Shown piece after piece: positions 3,254 to 58,867 of a stretch of DNA of 64,000 bases. The translations under genes and the position numbers were made by a program. The stretch is taken from positions 11,484 to 75,483 of the IMG/VR virus record IMGVR_UViG_3300050013_000065; one strand, written 5' to 3'. The stretch is from a virus. Position 1 is the first letter of the stretch; every line of letters starts with the position of its first letter. The notes beneath the pieces were generated by a model. It was not told the DNA's origin and ran no database searches. It saw nothing but the letters and a program-made list of their open reading frames with translations.

Positions 3254-4333
3254 TTGAACATCGCAGCCACAGAACTAAAGAAAGCTCTTCGGGTTTTTGC
3301 GCCAGTTCGAACCGAGTTCTACCAAATCGGGGAGCACGGAATTTCTGCCCAGGACTCCGACATCTGGGTAGTATCCGAAAGTCCATTATCCGGACTAGGG
3401 GGAATTTTCTCGGTCAACGGTAAGAAGCTGTCCCAAGTCGTAGGTCGAATGTCCGGGCAAGTTGAGATCACCAAAGAGGAGAAGCTCCTGTCTCTGAAGT
3501 CGGCGCGCGCGAAGATCGAGTTGGAAATCCAGGACATCAAGCCTCTCAAGATCCCCGATCCCCCCGCCAAGGTCCTGGAACTGGCTTCTGTCGATCTCAA
3601 GAAAGCTTTGTCGATAGCTGTTGCTTCGGCCTCCCCCAATAAGGCTTCAGCGTTCGGGGGTGTTGTCCTGCTCCAGAGCCTGCCTTTGGGAATCGAGGAG
3701 GGGTCTCCATCCGGCTATCGAATTGTGGGGACAGACGCGAACGTTCTCACCGTAGCCACCGTGGGAAACTCAGTCCAGTTTGAGTTCAAGATGACGTTGA
3801 ACCTTCCGGCGGCTGCGATAGTCCAGATAATGGACGGTACGATCTCCCTCGGAGAATCAAATACGCATCTGTACGCTCAGTCGGGGGGAATCCGTGTGTT
3901 CGCCTCCAAGCCGACCCAGACGTTCCCGAATTTTGACAGCCTTTTGTCCGTTCCTTCGAAGCTGAAGTTCGGATTCAAGACCGAGGAGTGGGTATCAGCT
4001 CTCCGCACAGTCGAGACTCTGATCGAAGAATCTGTCGATCAAGGAGGAATCGATTTACAATTCGCCGAAGGTGTGGTACAATGGAACAATACTGGAGTAG
4101 GGTCAACAGCGTCAGACGAAGCGCCCTACGAACAGATTGACCCAGACCCGCTATTTCAGCCGGTAACTGTTTCGAATCTTAGGGTTAAGGCCAAGTACCT
4201 GTCCGGATTCTTGGCGAAGGCTGGGGAAGAATCTACTTTGGGGCTGGTAGACAAGAATAAACCGATCCGACTGGAATCCGGAAATATGACTACTTTGGTA
4301 ATGCCTATGGCAGGGAAGAAGGAGACGAAGTAA
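3254..4333 (+). CDS. dnaN: DNA polymerase III beta-type sliding clamp
   Basis: 359 aa; IVGTDANVL (ATDGHRL-like), FPNF and C-terminal LVMPM are typical of beta clamps. TTG start after GGAGG. Confidence 0.78.
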   Translation: MNIAATELKKALRVFAPVRTEFYQIGEHGISAQDSDIWVVSESPLSGLGGIFSVNGKKLSQVVGRMSGQVEITKEEKLLSLKSARAKIELEIQDIKPLKIPDPPAKVLELASVDLKKALSIAVASASPNKASAFGGVVLLQSLPLGIEEGSPSGYRIVGTDANVLTVATVGNSVQFEFKMTLNLPAAAIVQIMDGTISLGESNTHLYAQSGGIRVFASKPTQTFPNFDSLLSVPSKLKFGFKTEEWVSALRTVETLIEESVDQGGIDLQFAEGVVQWNNTGVGSTASDEAPYEQIDPDPLFQPVTVSNLRVKAKYLSGFLAKAGEESTLGLVDKNKPIRLESGNMTTLVMPMAGKKETK

Positions 4334-5052
4334 TGGACGAAATCCAGACAACACCTTCCTACCTGCCCCCTCTAAACCAAGAGGATGCTCTCGTAAAAGG
4401 CAAGGAAATTGACGCACTCATTGGGCAAATCTGCTCCCACGAGGAGAGGCTTTCCCATTCCTACGCGCGCCTCGGGTCCCTACTCCGGGAGGTAAAGCTC
4501 CAGCAGTACTGGATTGCGTACGGTTTTGACCGATTTTCTTCCTACTTGGAGACGGTTCGTGAAAAAATAGATAGACGCCGGTCACAATTGTATGCTATAC
4601 TGTCTGTAGCTGAAGTTTTGCTTCCGCATATTTCTGAGTCCAAGTTGGAAGAGATTGGAATCACTAAAGCTCATGAATTGAGACGGTTGGTTCAGAACGA
4701 TGGAAATGTGCACGCGGAAGTTTTGGACCCGGATAACCAGACAGAAGATACCTGCGGGACTGTCCGGATAATGGACTACGCTCTACGCCCCAAGGTAACA
4801 GCAGCACAACTTCGGGTTAAGGTAAACGAGCTTCTTCATATTCACGAACTTCCGTCCGGGCTCTGGCTGGAGCTTCCCGGGTTCTACGCTACGCCAGACG
4901 AGAGAAAAGAAATCGATGAGTTCTGGAAGTTGGGGAAACAAGTTTTGGAGATCACGTCCGAGTCAGAACACGAAGTTCACAAAGAGGTGTTCTTGGCAGC
5001 TATTCGCGAGTGTGTAAGTTCGTGGATTCCTTTACTACAGGAAGAAAAATGA
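4333..5052 (+). CDS. Hypothetical protein, possibly DNA-binding
   Basis: 239-aa ORF with TAATG coupling to dnaN. Confidence 0.7.
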   Translation: MDEIQTTPSYLPPLNQEDALVKGKEIDALIGQICSHEERLSHSYARLGSLLREVKLQQYWIAYGFDRFSSYLETVREKIDRRRSQLYAILSVAEVLLPHISESKLEEIGITKAHELRRLVQNDGNVHAEVLDPDNQTEDTCGTVRIMDYALRPKVTAAQLRVKVNELLHIHELPSGLWLELPGFYATPDERKEIDEFWKLGKQVLEITSESEHEVHKEVFLAAIRECVSSWIPLLQEEK

Positions 5053-5255: not shown

Positions 5256-5610
5256 AACAGTCCGCGTAGAACTCGGAGAAACCGGTCTCCCGATCCGCAT
5301 ATTCCGGGATAAGCAATGGTTAAACTACCCTACGGTAGAAATGACCAAGGCCAAAGCGGTGGGGGGAATTCGAAAGCAAGTATTTCGTAGATGTTGGAAT
5401 CCATTATCTGGAAACTTCGAATGCGAAAAGTGTGGACGAACAATCACTTGGACTTCTGGAGAAATGAACGAGAAAATCGCGAAGGGTTCTGGTGGGGAAG
5501 TAAGTTTGAGCAACTGTGAAGCGTTATGTCACAGTTGTCACACAGGAAGTCCGGATTCCGCTCACGGAGACCGGAGATGGCAAACAGCAAAATTGAGTCC
5601 GAAGGAATAA
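5245..5610 (+). CDS. HNH-family nuclease-like protein
   Basis: CEKCG...GSGGEVSLSNCEALCHSCH. The usual first His position reads NE. Confidence 0.65.
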   Translation: MPSKTVRVELGETGLPIRIFRDKQWLNYPTVEMTKAKAVGGIRKQVFRRCWNPLSGNFECEKCGRTITWTSGEMNEKIAKGSGGEVSLSNCEALCHSCHTGSPDSAHGDRRWQTAKLSPKE

Positions 5611-5612
5611 CA

Positions 5613-6131
5613 ATGGACGTTCTTAAATACAAATCGGTAATCAAGCAGGTTTTGTCCGAGCTTAAAATCCCCGCAGATCAGAGGGAAGACATGAGCCAGG
5701 AGTGTTACGTAGCCTTGCTTGAAAAGCAGTCTCACATTGAAAAACGGATTGAAGCCAAAGAGGACTACAAATATGTAGCCCAAATCTGTCGGAGAAAGAT
5801 CATGTATCTTTGGAGGACGGGGCAACACCCTCAGAGGACCAAGGAAAACCCGGGGCCGAGGTTGGTGTCTCTTTCTTTGCCCAAGATCATGCACCAAGTA
5901 GAAAAGATACCTCAACCGACCGCCGAAGTTTCGGACGAGGAGCTATACGGAGCGATTGATAGCCTTCCCCTGGATGAATACCGAGTAATTTACAACGTGT
6001 TTGTGGATGGGAAATCACAGCGAGAGACCGCCGGAGATTTTGGAATCAGCCGCCGACAGGTGGCAAATTTAGCGGATCGCGGGATCAAAAATCTGAAGAA
6101 GTATTTTGAGGTAGAAGATGGCCAAGATTGA
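5613..6131 (+). CDS. Sigma-70 family (ECF-like) RNA polymerase sigma factor
   Basis: Region 2-like REDMSQECYVALL and region 4 HTH AIDSLP..EYRVI...FVDGKSQRETA..FGISRRQV...RGIKNLK. Confidence 0.75.
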   Translation: MDVLKYKSVIKQVLSELKIPADQREDMSQECYVALLEKQSHIEKRIEAKEDYKYVAQICRRKIMYLWRTGQHPQRTKENPGPRLVSLSLPKIMHQVEKIPQPTAEVSDEELYGAIDSLPLDEYRVIYNVFVDGKSQRETAGDFGISRRQVANLADRGIKNLKKYFEVEDGQD

Positions 6132-6390
6132 AGGTAGAGGAACTCTAAAAGCCGAAGTGGTCCTAGTTCTGTCTGAGGAAGAGGCGGGAGCCTTGGACGC
6201 CTTAGCGGGATACGGAGACGATTCGTTCATCGAATGCTTTTACAAACACATGGGGAGGGTATATCTAGAGCCCTACGAGAGGGGCCTACGCAGTCTGCTC
6301 AAGTCGGTCAGAACCGGAGAGGGATGTGTATCTTCTATTTTAGGCCGGGCTCAAAAGGCTAGGCGTATATTCTATGGGGAGGAAAAGTAA
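6118..6390 (+). CDS. Hypothetical protein
   Basis: GAGG RBS; packed within the operon. Confidence 0.65.
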   Translation: MAKIEGRGTLKAEVVLVLSEEEAGALDALAGYGDDSFIECFYKHMGRVYLEPYERGLRSLLKSVRTGEGCVSSILGRAQKARRIFYGEEK

Positions 6391-6710
6391 TGGGAATCCG
6401 AAACACAGTCGAAATTATTTGTGATTATCCCGAATGTAAAGCTGGACAAAACGGCAAACCCGTGGTATACTCTTGGTGTAAGGATGATGTTGAGAGCGGA
6501 AAAGCACAAGCCCCTCCCGAAGCTCAGTATTTAGTAATCTTCAACCAGGGAGGAGTTACGAAGTCCTTCTGCTGTCAGTTACACGCTGCGAGGTATTTTC
6601 TGCCGCCTGGGTACGATATCAAGCAGACCCCGGTGGTGGACATTTCAACGCGAAAGCCCGTCGAACCTTGGACGGAACCAATTCCAGATAATGGACAGGA
6701 GGGCCAGTGA
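6390..6710 (+). CDS. Hypothetical Cys-rich protein
   Basis: CDYPEC...FCCQLH; TAATG coupling. Confidence 0.65.
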   Translation: MGIRNTVEIICDYPECKAGQNGKPVVYSWCKDDVESGKAQAPPEAQYLVIFNQGGVTKSFCCQLHAARYFLPPGYDIKQTPVVDISTRKPVEPWTEPIPDNGQEGQ

Positions 6711-7248: not shown

Positions 7249-7415
7249 TGAGCCCCGTATACAATTACCAGTGCGTAGAGTGCGGGGAGAAGTTCGAGAA
7301 GCTGGTCAAGAAGGACACCAAACCTCCCCGATGTCCAACTTGCGACAAACCGACTCAGCAGATTTGGAGTGTACCGGCGGTCGCGGTTTGGAAATGCAGT
7401 AAGGGAAGTTTATGA
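7248..7415 (+). CDS. FmdB-family zinc ribbon protein
   Basis: PVYNYQCVECGEKFEKL...CPTCD; GTG start after GAGG. Confidence 0.7.
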   Translation: MSPVYNYQCVECGEKFEKLVKKDTKPPRCPTCDKPTQQIWSVPAVAVWKCSKGSL

Positions 7416-7882
7416 CACGAAAAGCAAAGCCGAAGACTAAAGTGCAGCTTGACAAAGCCGCCGACCAGAGACTCCAAAAGACGTATAATATCACTCTTCG
7501 AGAGTACGAGGAGATGGCCAAGAGGAACAATAGATGCTGCTGGGTGAGTGGGAAACCGGCAGGAACCCGTCGTCTGCACGTCGATCACGATCATGCGTGG
7601 AAGAAGGTCAAGATCGAGACCGTCAAGGTAAACGGATTGTGGGCGGCGGCGGCTCTCTACAACGAGAGAGAGTATGTTGGTGTAAATTCCAAAAAGTCTT
7701 TGGCGGTTCTCCAAGTGAAACGTCAACTGCTGCGCGCCAGTGTCCGGGGGTTGCTTTCATATCAAATCAATGCCGGGTTACAAAAATTCGCGGATGATCC
7801 GATTCTACTGAGGGCGGCTGCTGACTACCTCGAAAACTTTCAGAAAGGAAGTCCATTATCTGGACAGGAGAAAAATGACTAA
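7412..7882 (+). CDS. Endonuclease VII-like protein (atypical)
   Basis: YNITLREYEEM...LHVDHDH...VRGLL...N.GL..F.DDP..LRAAADYL, with several Zn-ligand Cys replaced. Confidence 0.7.
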   Translation: MTRKAKPKTKVQLDKAADQRLQKTYNITLREYEEMAKRNNRCCWVSGKPAGTRRLHVDHDHAWKKVKIETVKVNGLWAAAALYNEREYVGVNSKKSLAVLQVKRQLLRASVRGLLSYQINAGLQKFADDPILLRAAADYLENFQKGSPLSGQEKND

Positions 7883-40093: not shown

Positions 40094-40207
40094 TCATTTC
40101 TTCTTGGTCTTCTTTGCTTTCTTGGGCTTGGGTTTAGGTTTGGCTCCGTAGTACGTCGCGGTCGTGCTGGGCATTGATGGGCCGGTGGTTACTGAGGCGT
40201 TAGGCAT
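40094..40207 (-). CDS. Small basic peptide (37 aa)
   Basis: GAGGA RBS; poly-Lys/Pro tail; promoter-like TTGCAA-16-TATAAT at 40321-40294. Confidence 0.45.
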   Translation of the reverse strand: MPNASVTTGPSMPSTTATYYGAKPKPKPKKAKKTKKK

Positions 40208-40338
40208 TGGCGAAATCCTCACATGAGAGTTTGGGCTTCCGGGGACCGCGGTGAGGCGCGGCCCCCTTCAACCGTTTGTTCGAACATAGTAGTATTATAT
40301 CACACTTTCGTGCAATTGCAACAACTATTTTCGAATTT

Positions 40339-43300
40339 TTACGATGACGACGTTTCTGACTGCAAACGCTGCTTGTTGCGTCCATTATCTGGACGGGTCG
40401 ATCATTTCTGTCGGCCTCATACGGTTTCGTTTTCCGTATGGTCGGACTGTTGCATACTCTTTCGAGTCTTCTTCGCTCAGTCTCTCACGGTCTCTTTCGA
40501 GTTCCGCCTCGTCACCATTTCAGGGTTCGAGTCAATCAGAAGAAGTTTAGGCTCCGCCGCTGCTTTAACGGAGTGTCATCGTGCTTCCCGGCACATGTTA
40601 CTCATTCTAAACATCTTAGAACGGAGTAGATCGTTTCCGTCTACTTCATACGGTTTTTGTTTCCCGTATGCTCGGACTATTGCATGTCCATTATCTGGAC
40701 CCGCTTCGCTTAGTCTCTCAGCCTGCTTTCGCTTGGCCCTCCTTGGCATTTCAGCGTCGGAGTCAATCAGAAGTGGTTTATACTGCGCCCGTATGTTAAC
40801 GCAGTGTGTTGGTGTAGCGCACATTGTAAGAAACCCATCCGCCAATTTGGCGAGCTGGATCGCTCACGCTTCCCTGCTCAGGAGCACTCTGAATAAACAG
40901 CTTATAGTTCTTCGAGCCGTCATTCGGGTTCTTCCCGCGTATGTTACTCATTCTAAACATCTTAGAACGGAGTAGATCGTTTCCGTCTACTTCATGCAGT
41001 TACTATTTCTGCATGTCCAGACTATTGCATCGTCCATTATCTGGACGCCACTTCGCTTAGTCGTTCACGGTCTCTTTCGAGTTCCGCCTCGTCACCATTT
41101 CAGGGTTCGAGTCAATCAGAAGTGGTTTTCCTACGCAGATTACGCTGCGAGGTCCCCGGAGTTAAGGAACACAGAGAAGATAGCATCGTCGCCGAAAATG
41201 TAACTATTGTAATACGTATTGCCTGAAATAGTCACAGTGGGGGCAGTGGATGTCTGTTTGAAAGTAACACCCGCGAACGAGATGGTATCCTCATTCTTAG
41301 GCAGTTCAAACAGCATGTTGCGCATCTCGTCGCTTCTCTTGATGATGTCCGACAATCCGTTGAAGGAGGTGTCGTTCAAAACATCTCTGACAACATTAGG
41401 TAATTTTGTTAATCGGAGTTTTTACTTCCATCCGTGGTGTTCCGAGATTAGAACGCAGGGTGTTGCCTCGTTCAATAAATCCCCGGTCTCCCATGGGTGA
41501 CCCACTCCGTACAGGTCAGTCACCTGATCTGTTTTCTTACAGTCGCCTGTAAGTTCGGACTCTATCTTCGCCGTCCATTTTTCGGACGGGTCCGGCGTAT
41601 TAGTCTCTACGGGTTTGCCTTTGCGATTCAATTCTTTACAAAGAGAAATAATCTCATCTCTGCGCTCCATGCTTCCGAATCTATTCAGTTGCACATATTC
41701 TAACAACAGAGCCGCTTGTCTTTGTTTTATCTTCAGATGAGGTATTATGCCCTTCAACAGAACTTCTTTGCTTTCGTTTCCGAGAGCAACCCAGGTCCAT
41801 TGGTTCTTCCACTTTTTCTTAGCCATAGGTCTGAAATAAACGGTACCCCCAAATTTCTCCAATAACCAATCTAGAGGTTCTTTGGTGGTAAGACTCATGG
41901 ATATTCGGGAGTCCCGGTGTATGTAGGGCTTTCCCTTTGTGGATATAGAACGACCGCGAGATTTTGTTTTGTGAGACGTGGCCGCTATGTGGCCTTCTCC
42001 GTCTATTAGTCCCGCTGCGTACGCAAAATCTACTTCTGAAATAATTGAATCAGGCATCTTCCCTCGGTATTGTCTGGAATTTCACTACAACAAGTCTATC
42101 ACAAACGACAGAAATTGTCAACCAGAGATTCACCGATTTAGCCAGATTTTATATCCACCCTATATACGGCTTACGCCGCTTGGTGATAGTTTTGATAATG
42201 GATAATTCCACCAAATTTGTTGTCCACGAGAGGACGAGCGTTGACGCTTACCAGCGACTGAGCAGCAGACCGGATGTTATTCGCGGTCAGATACGAGCCG
42301 TTCGCAAGCTGGATGTTGACCAAGCTATCGACCGCAACAGCCGAGTCAGCGGTAAGCTGGACCAAGGAGTTGAGGGTGAGGGCTAGGCGGTAGTTTAGTT
42401 CGTTCCTTTTTGTTACCGTCCAGATAACGGGCGGGGCTGGTCATTTCTGCCAGCCTCTATACATCGCTGCATAGAGCGGACTATCGCATCACCCCGAAGG
42501 GCGTCCTCTTGTTTAGTCTCTACTGCTGCCCAGCCGAAGCCTGCTTGCAGTCTGTTGTCTCCTTGCGGAGAGTTCCAGCTTAATTAAAGAGGATTTATAC
42601 TGGCCCATTGGGTTAAGCCAGATTCTGCAATAAACCCGGGTCATCTATCGCGACATCCAACGCTAGGTCAGATGAATTGATGAAGTCGGCATATTGCCCG
42701 CAATGTGTTTAGGCAACCAACATCACTGTTGGTGCGCTCTCGCAGTCGCCTACGAGGTCAGACTCTATCATCTGTCCGTTATCCGGACAGGCAACCGTAT
42801 TAGTCGTTAGGGATATTCCGCGATGATTTAGTACTCGAAATTTTTTGATAACTTCTCGGGTCTCATCATCAGAAAGATTTCTTCGGTTTCGAAACCAGTC
42901 AAGTAGGAGAATAGCTTGCTCTCGTTTAGTAACCATATAAGGCAAAATAGCTAAGAGAGTAGTTTCCAAGAATCGGGTCGGTAGTACCCAATTTCCTAGT
43001 TCACGATGTTCTCTTTTGGAAGAGCTTACGCTGCCGCCAAACTTTTCAAGAAGGAAATCGAACACTCTCATGTCCGTATTGGGAAGCTGAATCTTGGGGT
43101 CGAAAGAACGTTTTGATTCATACAAACTCAAAGTTCCTTCGGCGTCTAAAATTCCGGCTAAATATTGATAGTCGTCCTTGCTCGCTGTAACTTCTTCTAC
43201 ATCTCTGTGCATTCTTTTTACTGGCTCAAAAAATCCGTTCCTAAAAGAAACGTAATCAGACAGTTCTTTTCTAGCATCAGAATTGTGGTAGCTTCTCCCC

Positions 43301-45011
43301 CCCAATCCAATAAATTGAACTATCGTTTCTCCTTGTCTCCGTTTCAACTTCAGAAGAGGGGAAACCATTTTCAATAGATTAAGTTGGTGTTCAGAATTAC
43401 TCACATACCAATGATGATTTGGTTTACGATTTGGACGCTTATCCTGTGTCGTGTAAAATTGTCCTCCGAAAGTATCGGATAGCCATTTTACCGTAGGCAG
43501 GTGCGTGGTCGCTACTTCTACCGTTGCATCATAGTTAATGTAGTTTTGTTCGTGCGGGTGGACTGCTATTCCCAAAGAACCATCGCCGTCTATTAAACCG
43601 GCTAGGTAGTTCCATCTTGCGGGGCTTATTTTTGTCTTATCTTTCAAACGGGTTTCCTCGGTATTGTCTACTCCAACTACTATACTACTACACCAAGTAG
43701 TATTTTGTCAAGCAGATGTTCACCGATTTAGGCTGCTTTTTCGACCACCGATATATTCATGGTCGCTACGATCTTGTTGCTGGACTCGCTGATGGGCGAT
43801 CCAACGGTTCCCTCAGCAGCCTGATTTAGGTTTGCTGCGAGCAGAGCGTAGGTGAAGACTTTTGTGTTTAGGCCGTCAGTATCTCTACTGGGGCGCTCTC
43901 ATCGTCGCCGATGAGAACAGGCTGTATCTTCGGTAGGTTGAGATAACGAATTACATCGCACAACTTCTTGCGGAGTTCCCTATTCGGAGAACTAGGAAGA
44001 CGAACAAGCTCCAAAGCGATCTTGGCTTGCGGTCTCTTGATTCTTAGGTAGGGAAGAACTTGGAGGAGGAATTGTTCCCGCCTTTCTTTTCCCGTCAACT
44101 CCCAAGTATAAAACTCCTCGGTGTTGTCGTGGGCCTTTGTCGTATGAAACCAACCTCCGTAGAGATCGAGAAACATTTGGACAAGGGGGCGGTAGTTGTT
44201 TCCCATCCGAATTCGTAGCATCGGTTTATTGTCTGGGGTGAAGGCGGCAGATACGCAACCTTCTCCGTCCATAATTCCGGCTATATACGCATGTGTTAGT
44301 TTATCTTCAACTTTTCCGTCTAGCGTCTCAGTCGTTAGGCATTCCCTGTTCTTCATTCCGCGAATCGTTTCCATAAGCTCTTGGCGTCTGGAAGGATTCT
44401 GTGCGTCTCCCAAGCTATAGAACTCCTGAAGTACGAGAGCCTCAGCTTTTTTGATGCGAAGATACGGAAGAATGTATGAGAGGAATTCGGGGGCAAACTT
44501 TTTGCCGTTGAGGTTCCACTGGTACCAAACCTGCCCTTTCTTAGGGGTGTGTTTGGTAAAGAAGCCACCGAAAGTTCTAACCAGCCATTTGACTATCGGC
44601 AGATTAGTATTACTCAAAACAATGCGTGGTTGGTAGTTGGTGCAGGGGCCGTTCGGTTTAACTGTTGGTTTGTAAATCGAAAAGCAACCCTCGGCGTCCA
44701 TCAGTCCGGCTACGTATGCTTTTGTTCGTTCTCTCATAGGGTCTTTGCTCGGTATTGTCTAGTTGACAAGATAAGAATACCACACCAGCATTCTATTGTC
44801 AATAGGGTTCCACCGATATAGCTAGATTTTAATTCAGCACTATTCAATACTGAATCTGGTTTCCCTGACGGAGCGGCAGCGGACGCTGCTTCGTCATGCT
44901 AAGGAAGGGTGTTTGTGCCTTCAGGTTAGGAATTGCTTCACGTTCATAGTGAATAGCTACGAGGTTGGGCAAAGCGCCCGAAGTCACAATTGATGCAGGT
45001 GAGTAACTCAT
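40339..45011 (-). CDS. Major capsid protein (N4-gp56 family-like), 8 exons: 45011-44849, 43858-43759, 42700-42616, 42404-42198, 41400-41165, 40937-40799, 40591-40568, 40368-40339
   Basis: AAGGAG RBS; exons sum to 984 nt (327 aa + stop). Motifs RPLP..QG..IQFF.Y, AEG, IGQYADF...SD, GIIHP, DP..QIGGW. Lies directly downstream of the scaffold gene. Confidence 0.88.
40369..40567 (-). mobile_element. Group I intron 7 of capsid gene (199 nt, no ORF)
   Basis: P1 CUCCGU/GCGGAG with U.G at the 5' site; P7 GACUG/CAGUC; ends in G. An alternative in-frame 3' site 3 nt earlier is possible. Confidence 0.85.
40592..40798 (-). mobile_element. Group I intron 6 of capsid gene (207 nt, no ORF)
   Basis: P1 CUGCGU/GCGCAG; P10 CCG/CGG; P7 GACUA/UAGUC; ends in G. 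Confidence 0.87.
40938..41164 (-). mobile_element. Group I intron 5 of capsid gene (227 nt, no ORF)
   Basis: P1 GUUCCU/GGGGAC; P3 CCACUUC/GAAGUGG; P7 GACUA/UAGUC; ends in G; the CT|C junction restores Leu. Confidence 0.87.
41422..42057 (-). CDS. Single-motif LAGLIDADG homing endonuclease (intron 4)
   Basis: YAAGLIDGEG; IIPHLKIKQRQA. Confidence 0.9.
   Translation of the reverse strand: MPDSIISEVDFAYAAGLIDGEGHIAATSHKTKSRGRSISTKGKPYIHRDSRISMSLTTKEPLDWLLEKFGGTVYFRPMAKKKWKNQWTWVALGNESKEVLLKGIIPHLKIKQRQAALLLEYVQLNRFGSMERRDEIISLCKELNRKGKPVETNTPDPSEKWTAKIESELTGDCKKTDQVTDLYGVGHPWETGDLLNEATPCVLISEHHGWK
42093..42121 (-). promoter_or_regulatory. Intron-internal sigma70 promoter for the intron 4 endonuclease
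   Basis: TTGACA-17 bp-TAGACT with TGn, between the P and Q core elements. Confidence 0.65.
42405..42615 (-). mobile_element. Group I intron 3 of capsid gene (211 nt, no ORF)
   Basis: P1 CUGGCU/GGCCAG; P3 UCCUCUU/AAGAGGA; P7 GACUA/UAGUC; ends in G. Confidence 0.87.
42701..43758 (-). mobile_element. Group I intron 2 of capsid gene (1058 nt) with LAGLIDADG ORF
   Basis: P1 CGACCAU/GUGGUCG; P3 GCAGCC/GGUUGC; ends in G; the AT|C junction restores Ile. Confidence 0.87.
42709..43647 (-). CDS. Double-motif LAGLIDADG homing endonuclease (intron 2)
   Basis: YLAGLIDGDG and YLAGILDAEG. Confidence 0.92.
   Translation of the reverse strand: MKDKTKISPARWNYLAGLIDGDGSLGIAVHPHEQNYINYDATVEVATTHLPTVKWLSDTFGGQFYTTQDKRPNRKPNHHWYVSNSEHQLNLLKMVSPLLKLKRRQGETIVQFIGLGGRSYHNSDARKELSDYVSFRNGFFEPVKRMHRDVEEVTASKDDYQYLAGILDAEGTLSLYESKRSFDPKIQLPNTDMRVFDFLLEKFGGSVSSSKREHRELGNWVLPTRFLETTLLAILPYMVTKREQAILLLDWFRNRRNLSDDETREVIKKFRVLNHRGISLTTNTVACPDNGQMIESDLVGDCESAPTVMLVA
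43868..44737 (-). CDS. Double-motif LAGLIDADG homing endonuclease (intron 1)
   Basis: YVAGLMDAEG and YIAGIMDGEG. Confidence 0.92.
   Translation of the reverse strand: MRERTKAYVAGLMDAEGCFSIYKPTVKPNGPCTNYQPRIVLSNTNLPIVKWLVRTFGGFFTKHTPKKGQVWYQWNLNGKKFAPEFLSYILPYLRIKKAEALVLQEFYSLGDAQNPSRRQELMETIRGMKNRECLTTETLDGKVEDKLTHAYIAGIMDGEGCVSAAFTPDNKPMLRIRMGNNYRPLVQMFLDLYGGWFHTTKAHDNTEEFYTWELTGKERREQFLLQVLPYLRIKRPQAKIALELVRLPSSPNRELRKKLCDVIRYLNLPKIQPVLIGDDESAPVEILTA
44774..44802 (-). promoter_or_regulatory. Intron-internal sigma70 promoter for the intron 1 endonuclease
   Basis: TTGACA-17 bp-TATTCT with TGn, inside the P5 hairpin. Confidence 0.65.
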
Positions 45012-45038
45012 TTAGAGATACTCCTTTGTTGTTAGTTT

Positions 45039-46214
45039 TTAGCGCCGACTTTGAGCACGTGCCCGACGAATAGCATTGAGGGTGTTCGCAACTTCTTCGT
45101 CTGTCATGTTCTCAAAATCCTCGGCTGAGGGTGCGTTCGGAGACTCCGGAGGTTTGACGGGTGTTACGTCATTCCTGCCAATTCCTAGTGCCGCTCTCGG
45201 GCGCGTAACCTGACTTACAATCCGTGAGTCGGGACGCGGCGCAGGTGCCGGTTCGTGTTGAACCGCTACCGGCGGAGGGGGTTCCACCGTTTCCGGTGAA
45301 GGTGTTTTGGGTTGCCTTGGTGCCTGAATCATCAAACCATCGTTGTTCAGGTCTTGGAAGGCTTCCTCAAGATTTTCGGCTGTGTAGTTTCCGGTGGAGA
45401 GTAGATTATTGAATACCGCTTCTTCATCTCCCTTTCGGATTGATTCACCGAGTTTGAACTTCGCTAGCCACTGAAGTAGCAGGTTGAAGTTCTGAAAATT
45501 TGTGTCCGCATAATAGTCGGGGTTATTCGCCAAGAAGGTTTTATTTGCCTGCTCGGCAGTAAGCTGATTGGCCGCGTACGATCCTTGCTTTGCTCCCTGC
45601 TGGGCGAGGTTCAGGACTTGGTCCATAGTCACCCCGCGAGTTTTTTGGAGTAAGAAGTCGTTGGCGGCTGCTGGATCTGACTCCCACAAAGTCCGGTATT
45701 CAAAAATCTCGTCTGCGGTGAGTTGCCGGACAGGAGACGGCTGAGGGGTCTGTGTTTGTGCTACTGGCTTCGCGGGAATAGCTCCGAACTTGATCTTGGC
45801 ATTCTGCTCCCGAATCTTCTTGGTAGCATTTGCCTGAGCCTTTAGAACTTCCAGAATCAACTTGTTCTTGGTAGCTCCTTTGTAGACTTGGGCGCTTCCC
45901 GCGCAACCTACGACCGAACCAACCCACACTCCTTTGTCTTTACTCAGGACTAGTTGGGTACCATCTTCGAGGTCCATTGTTTCTGGTTCTTCTGGTTCCT
46001 CGGGGGGTGGGGGCGGACCTGCTACAGGAGGAGTCTCGATAATTTCCGGGTCTAGGTTTTCCTGAGATGTGAGAACTGGATCTTGGTCATTAATATCTTC
46101 GTCGAGGTTGGGAAGATCGGGCATATTCCAATCTACGTTGTTTGCGAATGGGTCGGGGCTTCCGTCAGAGTTCAGGAGCCAGGGGTCAGATACAGGCTTA
46201 CTCATGTTGTTCAT
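45039..46214 (-). CDS. Capsid scaffolding protein (putative)
   Basis: Acidic, Pro-rich N-terminus and FENMTDEE... C-terminus; immediately upstream of the capsid gene. Confidence 0.65.
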   Translation of the reverse strand: MNNMSKPVSDPWLLNSDGSPDPFANNVDWNMPDLPNLDEDINDQDPVLTSQENLDPEIIETPPVAGPPPPPEEPEEPETMDLEDGTQLVLSKDKGVWVGSVVGCAGSAQVYKGATKNKLILEVLKAQANATKKIREQNAKIKFGAIPAKPVAQTQTPQPSPVRQLTADEIFEYRTLWESDPAAANDFLLQKTRGVTMDQVLNLAQQGAKQGSYAANQLTAEQANKTFLANNPDYYADTNFQNFNLLLQWLAKFKLGESIRKGDEEAVFNNLLSTGNYTAENLEEAFQDLNNDGLMIQAPRQPKTPSPETVEPPPPVAVQHEPAPAPRPDSRIVSQVTRPRAALGIGRNDVTPVKPPESPNAPSAEDFENMTDEEVANTLNAIRRARAQSRR

Positions 46215-46546: not shown

Positions 46547-46887
46547 TACGCCTCCTGCTGTTTCAAAACATCAAGTTTATCTCGGAACCCACTTAAGTAC
46601 GCCGTGAACTCCGTATCTGGGTGTAGTGCGAATTCCATTGCATTTTCGAGGTCCTGCTTGAAGAAAGTCTCGAATTGACTCAGGACAGAAAGTCCGGCAT
46701 GGGAGGCTACTACTGCGGGGTCTCCCGGCGGAAGAGATCGATGCGCTTGGTCAGTACCATCTACGTAGCTGTGGACAGTATCAAAGATGATCTCCCAGGC
46801 TTGGTCTGGTACTGTTCGTAGAATCCGTCCCCGTTCGTACACATCAATCTTGCCTTCTAGTTCATCGGGGTAGATAATGTCGGTCAC
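46546..46887 (-). CDS. Hypothetical protein
   Basis: GGAGG RBS; packed within the operon. Confidence 0.65.
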   Translation of the reverse strand: MTDIIYPDELEGKIDVYERGRILRTVPDQAWEIIFDTVHSYVDGTDQAHRSLPPGDPAVVASHAGLSVLSQFETFFKQDLENAMEFALHPDTEFTAYLSGFRDKLDVLKQQEA

Positions 46888-47093
46888 GACTGCCCTCCGT
46901 ACCGCTTAATAAGCCCGTCGATGTCTACATACCCTTTTTGAGGGGGAGGAGGTGCGGCGGATACTCGGCCCATACGTCCTGTTTTGACTTGGTGGGCTTG
47001 GTTGATTAGGTTCTGAATCTCGGCGTCCGACATTCGATCATAATCGGTGGCGGGGATAGCGTTGTCTTTAGTACTAAAATTTGGTTGAGTCAT
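46884..47093 (-). CDS. Small hypothetical protein
   Basis: TAATG coupling. Confidence 0.55.
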   Translation of the reverse strand: MTQPNFSTKDNAIPATDYDRMSDAEIQNLINQAHQVKTGRMGRVSAAPPPPQKGYVDIDGLIKRYGGQS

Positions 47094-47878
47094 TAGTAGT
47101 CGTCATCCCTCCAATCGTCGTAGTCGTACTCTGGCTCGTTTTCTTCCTCTAGTTTTTCCGGAGGGATGATGTCGGTTCTCACACTCCACTCCGGCCCAGA
47201 AAAGATTTTCTCTAACGCTTTCTCAGGGTTCTTGAGGGCTTTGCGGTATTCCCGAACGCCCACAAAAAGTTTATTGATCTGGTCGTCTGAGAGAGCGTCC
47301 AGACCTTCCGCCGGGTACGCGTAGCCCCCGATAGACTTTCTTTCGTCCTCTACCTTTTGGTAAAGTTCTTCTTGTGTATAGGAGGGGGTGAACTCTTCTT
47401 CCGAGTTTTGGGATGTGGGAAATTGCGTTATTCTCCCGTCCGGCCAGAATCTTGTGCCCGCAGAAGACCATCTATTAAACGAAGGCTTTGCGCGCCATTC
47501 CGCGTAATCTTTGTCTTCCGGGAGGAAAATTCTTTGGCAGACAGTACAGATTCCAACAGCCGCACCCGTATCCAAAGTGTGCCAGACGATGCTCGTCCTT
47601 CCAAAGGTATCTTGCATTTCGCTTAGAGGATTACAGCCAGCAACGTGGGGGCAGTTGTCTTGCTCGTCTTTCTTGTAACGCTCTTGTCTTTCTCGTAATT
47701 CTTTCGCTAGTTTTCTAAACGTAGATTCACGAGTTTCTTCTTCCAGGAGCGCCTGCGCTTTTCTCTTGAATTCTTTCAGAAAATCCTCTAGTGCGGAAAG
47801 AAGAGGCTGTAACAAATCTTCTAACTTTTGGGCCATCGTGTCTCCTGCATCAATCCGATGCCTCGGGGGTTTGTCCAT
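47093..47878 (-). CDS. Hypothetical protein with Cys/His Zn-binding domain
   Basis: CPHVAG...IVWH..D.G...GICTVC.R; paralog of 34160-34768. Confidence 0.7.
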   Translation of the reverse strand: MDKPPRHRIDAGDTMAQKLEDLLQPLLSALEDFLKEFKRKAQALLEEETRESTFRKLAKELRERQERYKKDEQDNCPHVAGCNPLSEMQDTFGRTSIVWHTLDTGAAVGICTVCQRIFLPEDKDYAEWRAKPSFNRWSSAGTRFWPDGRITQFPTSQNSEEEFTPSYTQEELYQKVEDERKSIGGYAYPAEGLDALSDDQINKLFVGVREYRKALKNPEKALEKIFSGPEWSVRTDIIPPEKLEEENEPEYDYDDWRDDDY

Positions 47879-48944
47879 TATCTGGACGGTTTAGTTGGGT
47901 GTCTATCCAATCGGCTATTTGGCGGTGTTCGGCGGCGGTGCCCACGTTCTTGATTCTGTTTGCTCGCCAACTGATTACCGCAACATTTCCGGGAACGTAT
48001 CCGAGTTCGGGGATGATCTTGTCTAGAGTCGGCGAACTGTCTTGCATCTTTCCAAGACCGGGCCTGATAGGTATTCCGAGAATGGGACAAATACTGGGAA
48101 TGAGAAAATCCTCTTTTGTGATAGAGAACGGAAATCCACCTCTCTTTGCCCGCCCTTTCGCGCTAGCGGTAAGCCGGTACAAATGCTTTTTAACAGCCGG
48201 AGTTGTCTCAAATACAAAAGAAGAAATACCTTCGATCCAGTTGGCAATCAGCCGGTGTTCTTTAGCCGTCCCGTCAGTCTTTAAAGTATTCGCCCGGTAG
48301 CTTATTACTGCGACATTTTCCCGAATGTATCCCAACTCAGGAACAATTCTATCCAAACTTGGAGATTCATCGTGATGAACTCCGGTCCCCCGTTCTAACG
48401 GTATCCCCAGAATAGGGCACAAGCGGGGAATGACCACATCTTCCTCCACCAAAGAAAAGGGTATATTATTCTCTTTGGCGCGGTTTTTAGCGGCATAAAA
48501 AATAGAGTACGAGGGTCTCTTCCGTCGCTTATCTTTCTGTTCTTCTAGAATGCGAGGCTTATTTTCCTCGTAAAAATCTTTACTTCTCGCAATATTTTTA
48601 TCTCGGTTTATGACGTGACGAGATCGACGATATTGCTTTATTTCTTCTGAGTGGGTTTCGTTATACGCTTTTTCTGCTTTGCGAATAGAGTCTCTATTTT
48701 TTAGATTATATTCTCGATTTTTAGCGAGTATTTCTTCTTTGTTCTCCGCGTAGTACTCTCTTCTTCTCCGGGAAAAGCAGGATTTACAGTCGTTTCGAAA
48801 CCCATCTTTCTTGCTTAAGTCTTTGTAAAACTCTGTTAACGGTTTAACTTCGCCGCACTTAGAGCAGCGTTTCATCATGGCTTCTTCTGTCATTTGGCTC
48901 ATCCTGAATATGAGGTAGGGCTTTGGGGACGATGATTCAGGCAC
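47850..48944 (-). CDS. Free-standing HNH-type homing endonuclease with tandem nuclease-like domains
   Basis: Zn finger plus two CPILGIP...SP.LD.I.PELGY...NVAVIS.RAN..K domains. Confidence 0.8.
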   Translation of the reverse strand: MPESSSPKPYLIFRMSQMTEEAMMKRCSKCGEVKPLTEFYKDLSKKDGFRNDCKSCFSRRRREYYAENKEEILAKNREYNLKNRDSIRKAEKAYNETHSEEIKQYRRSRHVINRDKNIARSKDFYEENKPRILEEQKDKRRKRPSYSIFYAAKNRAKENNIPFSLVEEDVVIPRLCPILGIPLERGTGVHHDESPSLDRIVPELGYIRENVAVISYRANTLKTDGTAKEHRLIANWIEGISSFVFETTPAVKKHLYRLTASAKGRAKRGGFPFSITKEDFLIPSICPILGIPIRPGLGKMQDSSPTLDKIIPELGYVPGNVAVISWRANRIKNVGTAAEHRQIADWIDTQLNRPDNGQTPEASD

Positions 48945-56811: not shown

Positions 56812-58867
56812 ACGGCGTCTGAGTTGATGCTTCTGGTTCTGGTTGGAATAGATCGGCTGTTGGCATAATTGGCTGTTCGCTATTTATGATGTTTCCGTTA
56901 TCGTCCATCCATGATCCGTTCTGCGCCATATAGTCTTCGTTGAAGAGTTCGTTCCATCCTATTTGATCTATGCGGGAGAACATCTCTACGTTGTTTTCGA
57001 CTATGGCTTGGGTGGCGCGGGGGGCATACCGATTGGGCATCTGAGAGATGACATCGGGTATATCATCGTGGTGATGCGAGACCAAACATTTGGCCCATTC
57101 ACTATAAAAGACTTCCAGATTAGGTTCTTTGGGGGCCATGCAGGCATTCAAGAATTTTAGACGTCCCTCGGAAATCCAAGGGTACATCGACCGCATTCGG
57201 ACGCGCTTGGCATCTATTTGATTGTCGGGAGTTACCCAGTCAATATGAGAGCACAACTCAATTACGCGCGCGTCTCTTGTTCTGAGCGCTGTCGAAATAA
57301 TCGTAGGCTCCAAGAAACGAGACCCGGCGGCATCTTCAATTCCAATAACAAATGGATGCTCTTCTACGGCTAGATCAACTACGGCTTGGGCGAGGGTGGA
57401 GTGATTGAAGCGGTCCCGAACAATCTTGCGAACGTATCCGACCGTTTTCTTGTTGCCGGTCTTCTCTCCCTTGGAAGTAAGTTCATCTTCTTCTGTCCAG
57501 ATAATGGACGCGCCAGTCGAGTAGTCTCTACCTTTTTTCTGGCTGAAAGCAAAATCCCAAAACTGGCAGCAAGGTCCTTCTCGGGGAAGCATCTGATACG
57601 GAACAGTAGCCCGGAGCATCATCATTCGGTCAAACTCTACGTCACTCGTAGTCTGGGGGTTCTGGTTAAGCTGCCCCTCTGTGACTCTCTCGTTCTTGGT
57701 AAACTTTCCGACGAAGAACGAGTACGTAATGAGGTTGGGAACAAGCAGGGAGCAACCCTCTTCCCCTGCTTCTTGGTACGTTACAGGGCGACCCTCTCTA
57801 GACAGCTTATCAATTATTTCCGGCTTAATCTGACAGGCTCTACCAATAACAATGTCAACATTGAAGGTCTTGTTGTGCAGCTTCTTCCAGTTTGGACCTT
57901 CTTGGACTACTTCAATTTCTCCGTTGTTTTGGAACTTGTCTACTAATTTTCCGTAGTGATCCATTTCGTGGTATCTAGTACCAACGAATTGCAGAAAATA
58001 CCCATCCCCGCCGGGGACTAGCAGGTTTTCTACTAGGTCTAACTTTTCGGAAACACTTTGACACTGCGTTTCAGTTTCTGTGTTTTTATCAGAGACTGCG
58101 TCATCCGCTTTGATGACCTCGTAGTGTTGTCCGGATTTTGTTTTTCCCACGGACGACGCCGTTACTGTCGCCTCTTTGCGTTTTACCTTTTTGCGGGACC
58201 ACACTGGGCAGGTAAAGACATTTCCTTTGCGCATATCCTTTTCTGGGCAGCAGTATTCTGGCCAGAATAGATTCATCAGAGTAGGTTCATCTTCTCTTAG
58301 AACAAAGAATGCTTTTACCTCTGATACGAAGCCAGAAGACAAGCTGGCCTCGGCTGTTAGGTACAGAAGTCGTATGTGGGGGTACGCCAATACCCATTGA
58401 ACCGTGTCAATATGATCCGACCAGCTCTTGGCGCATCCGCGAGGCCACAGCAATACTCTTGTTTTAACTTTGCTGAGTTTGTGGATGGGAGTCTTGGGGT
58501 CCTTTTGGACATACATATCGAAAACAACGTCATAGGTCGGGTCGAGAAAAATATTATCTGCGACGGGTTTAATTTCTCCCGTTGTGCTGAGAGAAATGAT
58601 GTCCCATAAGAAGTATTTAGCCAACCACTTGATATCAAAAATACACCGCCGACGAACTTCTTTCCCCGCCCGCGAGTTGGGTACGTGATCTACTCCCAAC
58701 TTCATCTCATTCTCAAGATCGGGTCGTATTTCTTGCAGAAAGTTGTACAGGTCTTCGTTTGATATCAGGGAAGCTCCTGAATAAAATTCCTCTGGGCGGC
58801 TGTCGAGCAGGTTCGGATCTGTCCCATTCTTTATGATGAGTTCGTCAAACCGGTCTAAATTGTCCAT
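56771..58867 (-). CDS. terL: Terminase large subunit
   Basis: LWPRGCAKS (Walker A-like), HYEVIKADD (Walker B), VGTRYH..D.YG, and nuclease motifs FWDFAFS and HDDIPD. Confidence 0.85.
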   Translation of the reverse strand: MDNLDRFDELIIKNGTDPNLLDSRPEEFYSGASLISNEDLYNFLQEIRPDLENEMKLGVDHVPNSRAGKEVRRRCIFDIKWLAKYFLWDIISLSTTGEIKPVADNIFLDPTYDVVFDMYVQKDPKTPIHKLSKVKTRVLLWPRGCAKSWSDHIDTVQWVLAYPHIRLLYLTAEASLSSGFVSEVKAFFVLREDEPTLMNLFWPEYCCPEKDMRKGNVFTCPVWSRKKVKRKEATVTASSVGKTKSGQHYEVIKADDAVSDKNTETETQCQSVSEKLDLVENLLVPGGDGYFLQFVGTRYHEMDHYGKLVDKFQNNGEIEVVQEGPNWKKLHNKTFNVDIVIGRACQIKPEIIDKLSREGRPVTYQEAGEEGCSLLVPNLITYSFFVGKFTKNERVTEGQLNQNPQTTSDVEFDRMMMLRATVPYQMLPREGPCCQFWDFAFSQKKGRDYSTGASIIWTEEDELTSKGEKTGNKKTVGYVRKIVRDRFNHSTLAQAVVDLAVEEHPFVIGIEDAAGSRFLEPTIISTALRTRDARVIELCSHIDWVTPDNQIDAKRVRMRSMYPWISEGRLKFLNACMAPKEPNLEVFYSEWAKCLVSHHHDDIPDVISQMPNRYAPRATQAIVENNVEMFSRIDQIGWNELFNEDYMAQNGSWMDDNGNIINSEQPIMPTADLFQPEPEASTQTPYGLPNVLGAGFWG

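Follow-up and report, generated by a model that had tools for sequence, protein, structure and literature searches.

Copies of a genome-wide dyad repeat form peripheral hairpins in six of the seven group I introns of a phage capsid gene

Introduction

A short dyad repeat scattered through a phage genome has been described in the Cluster O mycobacteriophages, which contain 34 copies of the 17-bp sequence TGTTCGG-NNN-CCGAACA; its authors suspect it to be the site of a dimeric protein (PMC4351075). Here we analyze a 64,000-nt stretch of a virus genome (positions 11,484 to 75,483 of IMG/VR record IMGVR_UViG_3300050013_000065; hereafter the window), which contains a 15-bp dyad, GTCCA-GATAA-TGGAC (hereafter the motif), in many places. 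Six of the seven group I introns in the major capsid gene hold one copy each of this genome-wide motif (GTCCAGATAATGGAC in the RNA sense), and each copy forms a peripheral hairpin of the intron.

Other kinds of repeats and hairpins provide further background. The uptake signals of Neisseria and Haemophilus (DNA uptake sequences, DUS, and uptake signal sequences, USS) sit as inverted pairs in terminator hairpins. The GC clusters, PstI palindromes, and double-hairpin elements of fungal mitochondria are found in intergenic DNA and in the loops of group I introns. The boxB hairpin of phages lambda and P22, which is composed of a 5-bp stem and a GNRA-like pentaloop, is bound by N, and the proteins CYT-18 and CBP2 and the LAGLIDADG maturases assist group I splicing.

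Like the Cluster O repeat, the motif is present in tens of near-identical copies, is confined to one clade, lies both between and inside genes, and follows no orientation rule. As a genome-wide repeat, the motif adds a new case to a class that has been described but not explained. A literature search for its sequence found no paper.

Results

The motif forms P8 or P9.2 in six capsid introns

The major capsid gene (window 40339–45011, minus strand, as are all of its exons, introns, and intronic motif copies) is composed of eight exons, which encode a 328-amino-acid protein, and seven group I introns, as defined by tblastn against intron-less relatives and by views of the junctions. The introns belong to two families. 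Introns 5, 6, and 7 align end to end and, together with intron 3, which is in the same broad family, constitute family A. A second core, common to introns 1, 2, and 4, defines family B; in it, P7 (GACU) is followed by P3′, a hairpin, and then J8/7-P7′ (GAUAGAGUC).

The motif hairpin is P8 in introns 2, 4, 5, and 6, and P9.2 in introns 3 and 7. We use P9.2 for the final hairpin of the intron, which follows P9.1 and precedes the conserved GUAACA tail and the 3′ splice site. The copies in P8 of intron 5 (41032–41046), P8 of intron 6 (40686–40700), and P9.2 of intron 7 (40380–40394, 11 nt from the 3′ splice site) are exact, with pair probabilities of 0.93–0.96, 0.89–0.92, and 0.97–1.0, respectively; P8 of intron 7 is a plain ACUC-GAAA-GAGU hairpin. 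The copy in P8 of intron 2 (42774–42788; RNA CUGUCCG-GAUAA-CGGACAG) has a 7-bp stem and two mismatches to the motif, which are compensatory (GTCCG/CGGAC, replacing an A-U pair by G-C). The copy in P8 of intron 4 (41573–41587; RNA CCGUCCG-AAAAA-UGGACGG) has three mismatches, a G-U closing pair, and a GAAAA-type loop. The copy in P9.2 of intron 3 (42418–42432; RNA GCCCGUUAUCUGGAC), 13 nt from the 3′ splice site, is degenerate, with two mismatches, and lies in the opposite orientation. All six copies had been located, and the compensatory changes in intron 2 recognized, in an original prediction made from the sequence alone.

The Rfam model Intron_gpI aligns introns 4 and 2 over their full length (27.1 and 17.7 bits, below the gathering score of 50) and puts both motif copies at P8, directly 5′ of J8/7. 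At the gathering threshold, Rfam reports four tRNAs only, the capsid introns being below it. For family A, homologous 3′ halves were gathered from public viral contigs by their core pattern, and 75 were used in RNAalifold. The consensus recovers P7, P8, P9, and P9.1, with compensatory changes in 17 of 23 pairs. The copies of introns 5 and 6 fall in the P8 columns, and those of introns 3 and 7 fall between P9.1 and the GUAACA tail. The P3/P3′ pairings of the capsid introns were read by eye. RNAfold gives the motif stem a probability of ~0.9–1.0 in five introns, with 1.0 in intron 2, and the loop-closing pair in intron 4 a probability of 0.48. Because pairing in the motif register would include a C-A mismatch, the bases of the intron 3 copy pair one position out of step. 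The helices assigned to the six copies in the original prediction are thus upheld by the Rfam alignment, the RNAalifold consensus, and RNAfold.

Intron 1 has no motif copy. In accordance with the same prediction, ~385 nt that include the second LAGLIDADG domain occupy the expected position of its P8.

Introns 5 and 6 are almost the same in their 3′ halves, and the P8 common to introns 2 and 4 is family-wide, indicating that the six copies represent fewer than six events. The motif stem is extended by flanking pairs in five of the six intron copies, versus 12 of 46 copies outside introns (chance, ~37%). Since the extension is confined to introns, hairpin stability is selected there and not elsewhere. 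The six intron hairpins are true members of the genome-wide motif family.

Distribution of the motif in the genome

The source genome is a single contig of 75,483 bp with genes for portal, large terminase, and DNA replication proteins and tRNAs. Near-identical DNA is found in peat and permafrost metagenomes across many studies. The window contains 42 matches to the motif with up to three mismatches, compared with 1.38 expected from shuffles, and the whole 75.5-kb genome contains 53 copies. At up to two mismatches there are 44 copies in the genome (23 inside open reading frames (ORFs), six overlapping gene ends, and 15 intergenic or intronic), which read GAUAA on the sense strand in 25 cases and UUAUC in 19. 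Outside the capsid gene, 17 of 47 copies are exact.

At least 20 ORFs contain the motif, which is read in all three frames when in one orientation (encoding VHYLD, SPLSG, and SIIWT) and in both stop-free frames when in the other (VQIMD and PDNG). The 14:9 ratio of orientations among coding copies equals the 3:2 expected under neutrality with one frame closed by TAA, and in the early block of the genome the orientations are near 1:1. A promoter reading was rejected, as both orientations occur within blocks transcribed one way.

About 15 of the 44 copies end 8–14 nt before a start codon or contain it. At five gene junctions (window 12012, 25579, 39952, and 58862; genome 5590), the motif gives an overlapping stop and start, GATAATGG, in which TAA and ATG share one A. 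A sixth junction copy (window 10345) gives only the stop of the upstream gene, and all six are in the single orientation that permits such use. A motif copy overlaps the start of the second of two ORFs that together make up a UvrD-like helicase (in L187 genome coordinates, upstream of the window: N-terminal domains, 3880–4914; C-terminal domain, 5599–6423). The two ORFs are 685 nt apart with three small ORFs between them; Rfam finds nothing in the first 11.6 kb of the genome, and the split is not explained by a recognizable intron.

The original prediction had noted that six copies in 2.4 kb are several times the window average. The figure itself is correct (2.5 per kb in the capsid-intron stretch versus 0.66 per kb in the window), but the density of copies in introns matches that of intergenic DNA. 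Per kb, introns have 1.6 copies in total, or 3.2 when the endonuclease ORFs are set aside; intergenic DNA has 1.5–2.3, and coding DNA has 0.35. The high local density relative to the window average thus mostly reflects the general difference between non-coding and coding DNA.

An exact copy in the gene for the terminase large subunit (57495–57509) is common only to the closest relatives, L002, L005, and L009 (L numbers designate loci in related and other viral contigs). Ten more distant relatives align without gaps at this site and lack the motif, encoding S-V/I-M/I-W-G. Judged from this alignment, point substitutions gave rise to the terminase copy, replacing a Gly by Thr, without insertion or deletion. 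No clean insertion polymorphism of the motif was seen among the relatives; sites without a copy either align without gaps, as in terminase, or hold another hairpin of similar size. A model of mobile insertion was rejected, insertion–deletion polymorphism being absent among the relatives compared. Gaps of 7.4 and 8.2 kb, in large tail genes, are free of the motif; a model in which a copy is needed every so many kilobases was rejected on account of these gaps. The proposal that the introns serve to bring the site into a gene unable to encode it likewise fails, given the gaps of 7–8 kb, the motif in at least 20 ORFs, and the origin of the terminase copy by substitution.

Homologous introns of other genomes lack the motif

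Comparison with homologous introns had been named beforehand as the decisive control. Among family-A introns from motif-less viral contigs, 0 of 103 distinct introns have the motif in P8 or P9.2. Among those of motif-bearing phages, 14 of 28 have it, four in P8 and ten in P9.2, and never in both. For family B, 14 of 15 introns of motif-bearing phages have the motif (12 of the 13 matches from relatives, together with introns 2 and 4 of the window), compared with none of ~33 matches elsewhere (~14 distinct sequences), which include the motif-less relatives L036 and L038. In the motif-less family-A homologues, each of P8 and P9.2 is one hairpin of arbitrary sequence, usually capped by a GNRA or UUCG tetraloop; as arbitrary hairpin sequences occur there in introns of unrelated contigs, these two helices tolerate any palindrome, and so does P8 of family B. 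P8 and P9.2 of unrelated genomes are thus without the motif, and the structural models place the window copies inside the predicted stems. The suggestion that introns of at least two lineages have acquired a phage-specific tag at tolerant sites is borne out, both families being tagged in this clade and neither elsewhere.

The only motif-like hairpin in the 103 controls, CGUCC-AGAAC-GGACG, is P8 of a family-A intron in an unrelated contig (L119) that has no other copies. It is two bases shorter, and we judge it to be a chance resemblance.

About 87% of the intron copies across the clade have a GAUAA-type loop in the RNA. Flipped copies are found in intron 3 of the window and in P8 of L019/L020 and L041. 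On a low-resolution tree of the family-A cores, from which the P8 and P9.2 columns had been removed, the motif state needs ~8 gains or losses.

Intron copies follow the motif variant of their own lineage

The motif is present in relatives down to ~59–64% portal identity. In L036–L040 and L046–L048 (portal identity 43–56%), no repeat was found at up to two mismatches. Consensus motifs derived from word counts in the relatives differ between lineages. The consensus is GTCCAGATAATGGAC in the window and in L001, L002, L004, L005, and L009; GTCCAGAAAATGGAC in L007 and L041; GTCCAGTTAATGGAC in L010, L011, L016, and L026, with one base different in L025; GTCCGAATAATGGAC in L014, L015, and L024; TTCCAGATAATGGAA, with both outer bases changed, in L030, L031, L032, and L042; and GTCCGGAAAATGGAC in L043 and L045.

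The introns carry the variant of their own lineage, for example UUCCACAUAAUGGAA in P9.2 of L032, GUCCGAAUAAUGGAC in P8 of L024, and GUCCAGAAAAUGGAC in P9.2 of L041. The consensus of each genome was derived from its copies outside the capsid gene. Against this own consensus, 30 intron copies have on average 1.17 mismatches, versus 2.25 against those of other lineages, and none of 5000 permutations gave a value as low (p<0.0002). Copies outside introns average 0.96 mismatches from their own consensus. The tracking is imperfect, as illustrated by the GAAAA-type loop in intron 4 of the window and by one foreign-type copy each in L007 and L014. Homing of introns between lineages, followed by adaptation, would produce this pattern.

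Exons, junctions, and transcript contigs of the capsid gene

The junctions were set by aligning the window to the uninterrupted 328-amino-acid capsid genes of L037, L046, and L047, which have no intron, and the joined exons match the proteins of these genes. In a comparison with INPHARED phages by blastn and tblastn, the capsid region has no match.

Exon 1 (45011–44849) matches phrog_1357, a major head protein, and is followed by intron 1 (43859–44848; 990 nt, family B), with a double-motif LAGLIDADG ORF (43868–44737). Exon 2 (43858–43759) precedes intron 2 (42701–43758; 1058 nt, family B), in which a LAGLIDADG ORF (42709–43647) reads through the ribozyme core. Exon 3 (42700–42616), intron 3 (42405–42615; 211 nt, family A, no ORF), and exon 4 (42404–42198) follow. 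Intron 4 (41401–42197; 797 nt, family B) contains a single-motif LAGLIDADG ORF (41422–42057), again reading through the core. The 3′ part of the gene is composed of exon 5 (41400–41165), intron 5 (40938–41164; 227 nt), exon 6 (40937–40799), intron 6 (40592–40798; 207 nt), exon 7 (40591–40568), intron 7 (40369–40567; 199 nt), and exon 8 (40368–40339), which contains the stop codon; introns 5, 6, and 7 are of family A. Exon 7, of just 24 nt (PGSTMTLR), lies between two paralogous family-A introns.

The last base of all seven 5′ exons is U (T in the DNA). Six of the seven introns end in G (omega G), and intron 4 ends in A. The junction of intron 4 is fixed by P1 (with one compensatory pair), by P10 (CCUA/UAGG), and by synonymous-only changes in the next codons. 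By its sequence, intron 4 looks like a group I intron that lacks the usual terminal G. Its 3′ end (window 41401–41404) reads ...AAAAUUA, and the orthologues in L007 (16700–16715) and L026 (6965–6980) also end in UA. P1 pairings were assigned by eye for intron 4 (UAUCCAU/GUGGAUA, with a compensatory C-G in L026), intron 6 (CUGCGU/GCGCAG), and intron 7 (CUCCGU/GCGGAG).

Metatranscriptome contigs from three runs, which come from related strains and not the exact strain, join exons and skip exactly 990, 1058, and 211 nt, in agreement with the junctions, although such contigs cannot separate spliced RNA from intron-less alleles. Assembled contigs of this kind likewise cannot show excised introns or RNA ends at the motif. 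Peat and permafrost metatranscriptomes (runs X15–X17, compared over window 40200–45100) contain capsid message without introns 1–5, at greater depth than contigs of the intron-endonuclease region.

The capsid gene is unusually intron-saturated for a phage across the clade. In relatives (loci L004–L043), the 328 codons are interrupted at well over a dozen positions (codons ~21, 30, 35, 39, 55, 76, 88, 116, 186, 249, 253, 265, ~278, ~299, 311, and 319), with a different subset in each phage.

Other genes of the window

A 184-residue protein (5577–6131) has a sigma-70 region 4 domain, and the phage may redirect the host RNA polymerase. As a protein that reads the motif it was rejected, a sigma-dependent promoter having a fixed orientation. 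Also present are two endonuclease VII-like genes (7412–7882 and 47850–48893) and several HNH genes. The second of the former, which is HNH/endonuclease VII-like, and a gene for a 69-residue protein (46884–47093) lie within 10 kb of the portal gene and are present only in motif-bearing relatives. Both were considered as candidate readers and set aside, since neither product has a DNA- or RNA-binding Pfam family and their distribution is patchy.

Discussion

In our judgment the chances are about even that the motif is a lineage-specific recognition site, probably read on DNA, which has been installed where a palindrome is free of cost. Selection, or homogenization from copy to copy, would maintain the motif at many genomic positions, and the motif would most likely serve as the site of a lineage-specific, probably dimeric, phage-encoded putative protein that reads double-stranded DNA. 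We infer such a reader because the motif behaves like a site under pressure that is genome-wide, lineage-specific, and largely indifferent to orientation and frame. As a transcribed DNA palindrome is an RNA hairpin, P8 and P9.2 could take the motif without cost to codons or catalysis, and incoming mobile introns would gradually be 'naturalized' to the variant of the resident genome. The ribozyme would set only how the motif is written, with a stem lengthened by flanking pairs and a preference for the orientation that gives a GNRA-like GAUAA loop (GAAAA or similar). A GAUAA-type loop can fold like the GNRA tetraloops usual at these positions, as in the boxB pentaloops. The flipped intron copies fit a reader indifferent to orientation, and the hairpins would probably have no role in splicing. 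The regulatory interpretation given in the original prediction, in which the motif couples capsid splicing to a binding protein, is unproven and is not the most economical.

Several observations weigh against reading at the DNA level. Genes restricted to motif-bearing relatives within 10 kb of portal contain no DNA- or RNA-binding Pfam family. In the structural modules of relatives, the GAUAA form is on the sense strand by ~2:1 (82:38), and the loop-closing pair is G-U rather than A-C by 50:16; in the lineage of L014, L015, and L024, 24 of 27 copies are in one orientation. These sense-strand and G-U biases would suit reading at the RNA level, but the sites are non-independent and the TAATG stop/start explains some of them. 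The ratio of G-U to A-C, as a test for RNA pairing, is 15:8 in this genome and 56:32 overall in relatives, which is suggestive and is confounded by shared ancestry and by an asymmetric lineage variant. In addition, the central five bases are conserved more tightly than a half-site spacer would require, and by our own count six of seven introns are tagged versus ~17 of 42 intergenic gaps of at least 25 nt.

The sense-strand and G-U biases would fit a rival explanation, in which the GAUAA-loop hairpin is bound by a putative phage RNA-binding protein that would help or time capsid splicing and, near ribosome-binding sites, act on translation or stability. The prevalence of GAUAA-type loops among the intron copies of the clade, the presence of exactly one copy in each of six of the seven introns, and the copies just before or containing start codons all speak for it, and a 5-bp stem with a GNNAA pentaloop is the shape of known protein-binding hairpins such as boxB. 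However, half of the family-A introns of the clade, as well as intron 1, do without the motif in the same essential gene, and family-A introns elsewhere manage without such a hairpin. Flipped copies occur at orthologous positions, the orientation of coding copies in this genome is neutral and that of copies in the early block is close to 1:1, and copies outside introns are not selected for a stable stem. We therefore consider this explanation unlikely. Its fuller form is more doubtful still: the hairpin would be the RNA operator of a putative phage protein and define a post-transcriptional regulon, in which binding at P8 or P9.2 gates or chaperones up to six introns and times capsid production. 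The lineage variants of the motif would then reflect co-evolution of protein and operator.

Sequence homogenization without function is also unlikely, if slightly less so than a reader of RNA. The motif would spread in a selfish or neutral manner by short-patch gene conversion, by templated repair of quasi-palindromes, or by an endonuclease-linked process, and would persist where it does little harm, as in introns. The very high identity of the copies, more than a third of which are exact outside the capsid gene, and the concerted change of all copies within a lineage, introns included, are consistent with such spread; homing endonucleases abound in the genome (three LAGLIDADG genes and several of the HNH or endonuclease VII type), and flips of the loop are an expected product of hairpin-templated switching. 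Against it, sites in relatives differ by substitutions and not by insertion or deletion of the motif, the motif persists among phages with portal proteins of only ~60% identity, and the terminase copy cost a Gly-to-Thr change, which suggests positive pressure. Nearly excluded by the control introns is coincidence or shared ancestry, by which the intron families merely inherited motif-like P8 and P9 sequences. Some family-B P8 hairpins outside the clade do share TCC...GGA arms and the 5-bp/5-nt geometry, such as ATTCC-GATCT-GGAAT in L038, and the paralogy of introns 5/6 and 2/4 reduces the number of events to be explained. But the motif is absent from every homologous intron surveyed outside the clade, it is found in two unrelated intron families and two different helices, the intron copies follow the variant of their own genome, and the family-A tree calls for repeated gains or losses. 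The arms and 5+5+5 geometry of the L038 type may instead have made conversion to the motif cheap.

Mobile group I introns are here seen adapting to a sequence signal of their host genome, and the lineage variants point to a co-evolving putative reader protein, for which comparative genomics could search. In introns only, the 15 bases of the motif are constrained by RNA structure, a natural experiment that can separate functions at the DNA level from those at the RNA level. If the reader acts on RNA, the system would represent a new type of control over viral self-splicing introns.

Among the known systems, boxB and protein-assisted splicing share with the motif the hairpin geometry and offer a precedent for proteins that act on peripheral intron elements to promote splicing. 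However, boxB occurs once or twice per operon in one orientation, and half of the related introns here lack the hairpin. The mitochondrial palindromes are likewise short, genome-specific palindromic repeats that are also found in peripheral parts of group I introns, but they are regarded as mobile insertions that are polymorphic for presence or absence; no insertion polymorphism was seen here, and substitution gave rise to at least one copy. The DUS and USS signals also represent a DNA-level motif under genome-wide selection that gathers, at low cost, where an RNA hairpin is needed. They differ in belonging to cellular genomes, in being a single-orientation word used twice, in their known function in DNA uptake, and in having no connection with introns.

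The start-associated sequences of Cluster K and the stoperators of Cluster A are also short phage-specific repeats in many copies, many of which lie just before starts or overlap an upstream stop, but they are asymmetric, almost always in one orientation, and at gene starts only (PMC3203893); the motif occurs in both orientations and in ORFs and introns. The Cluster O repeat is closer. It has tens of copies in a ~70-kb genome, inverted arms, and an A/T-rich asymmetric center; its copies occupy small gaps between genes, the vicinity of gene 5′ ends, and the interior of ORFs with no clear orientation rule. It is absent outside the phage cluster and loses sites by single substitutions, all as observed here (PMC4351075). 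It differs in sequence and in architecture (7+3+7 versus 5+5+5), and those phages have no introns, hence no link to structured RNA; the available part of its description reports no lineage variants of the repeat (PMC4351075). Our literature search found no description of a repeat repeatedly installed in the peripheral helices of ribozymes in step with lineage variants. What is new here is that peripheral helices in two unrelated families of ribozymes have repeatedly taken up the repeat, and that the copies there change in step with the rest of the genome.

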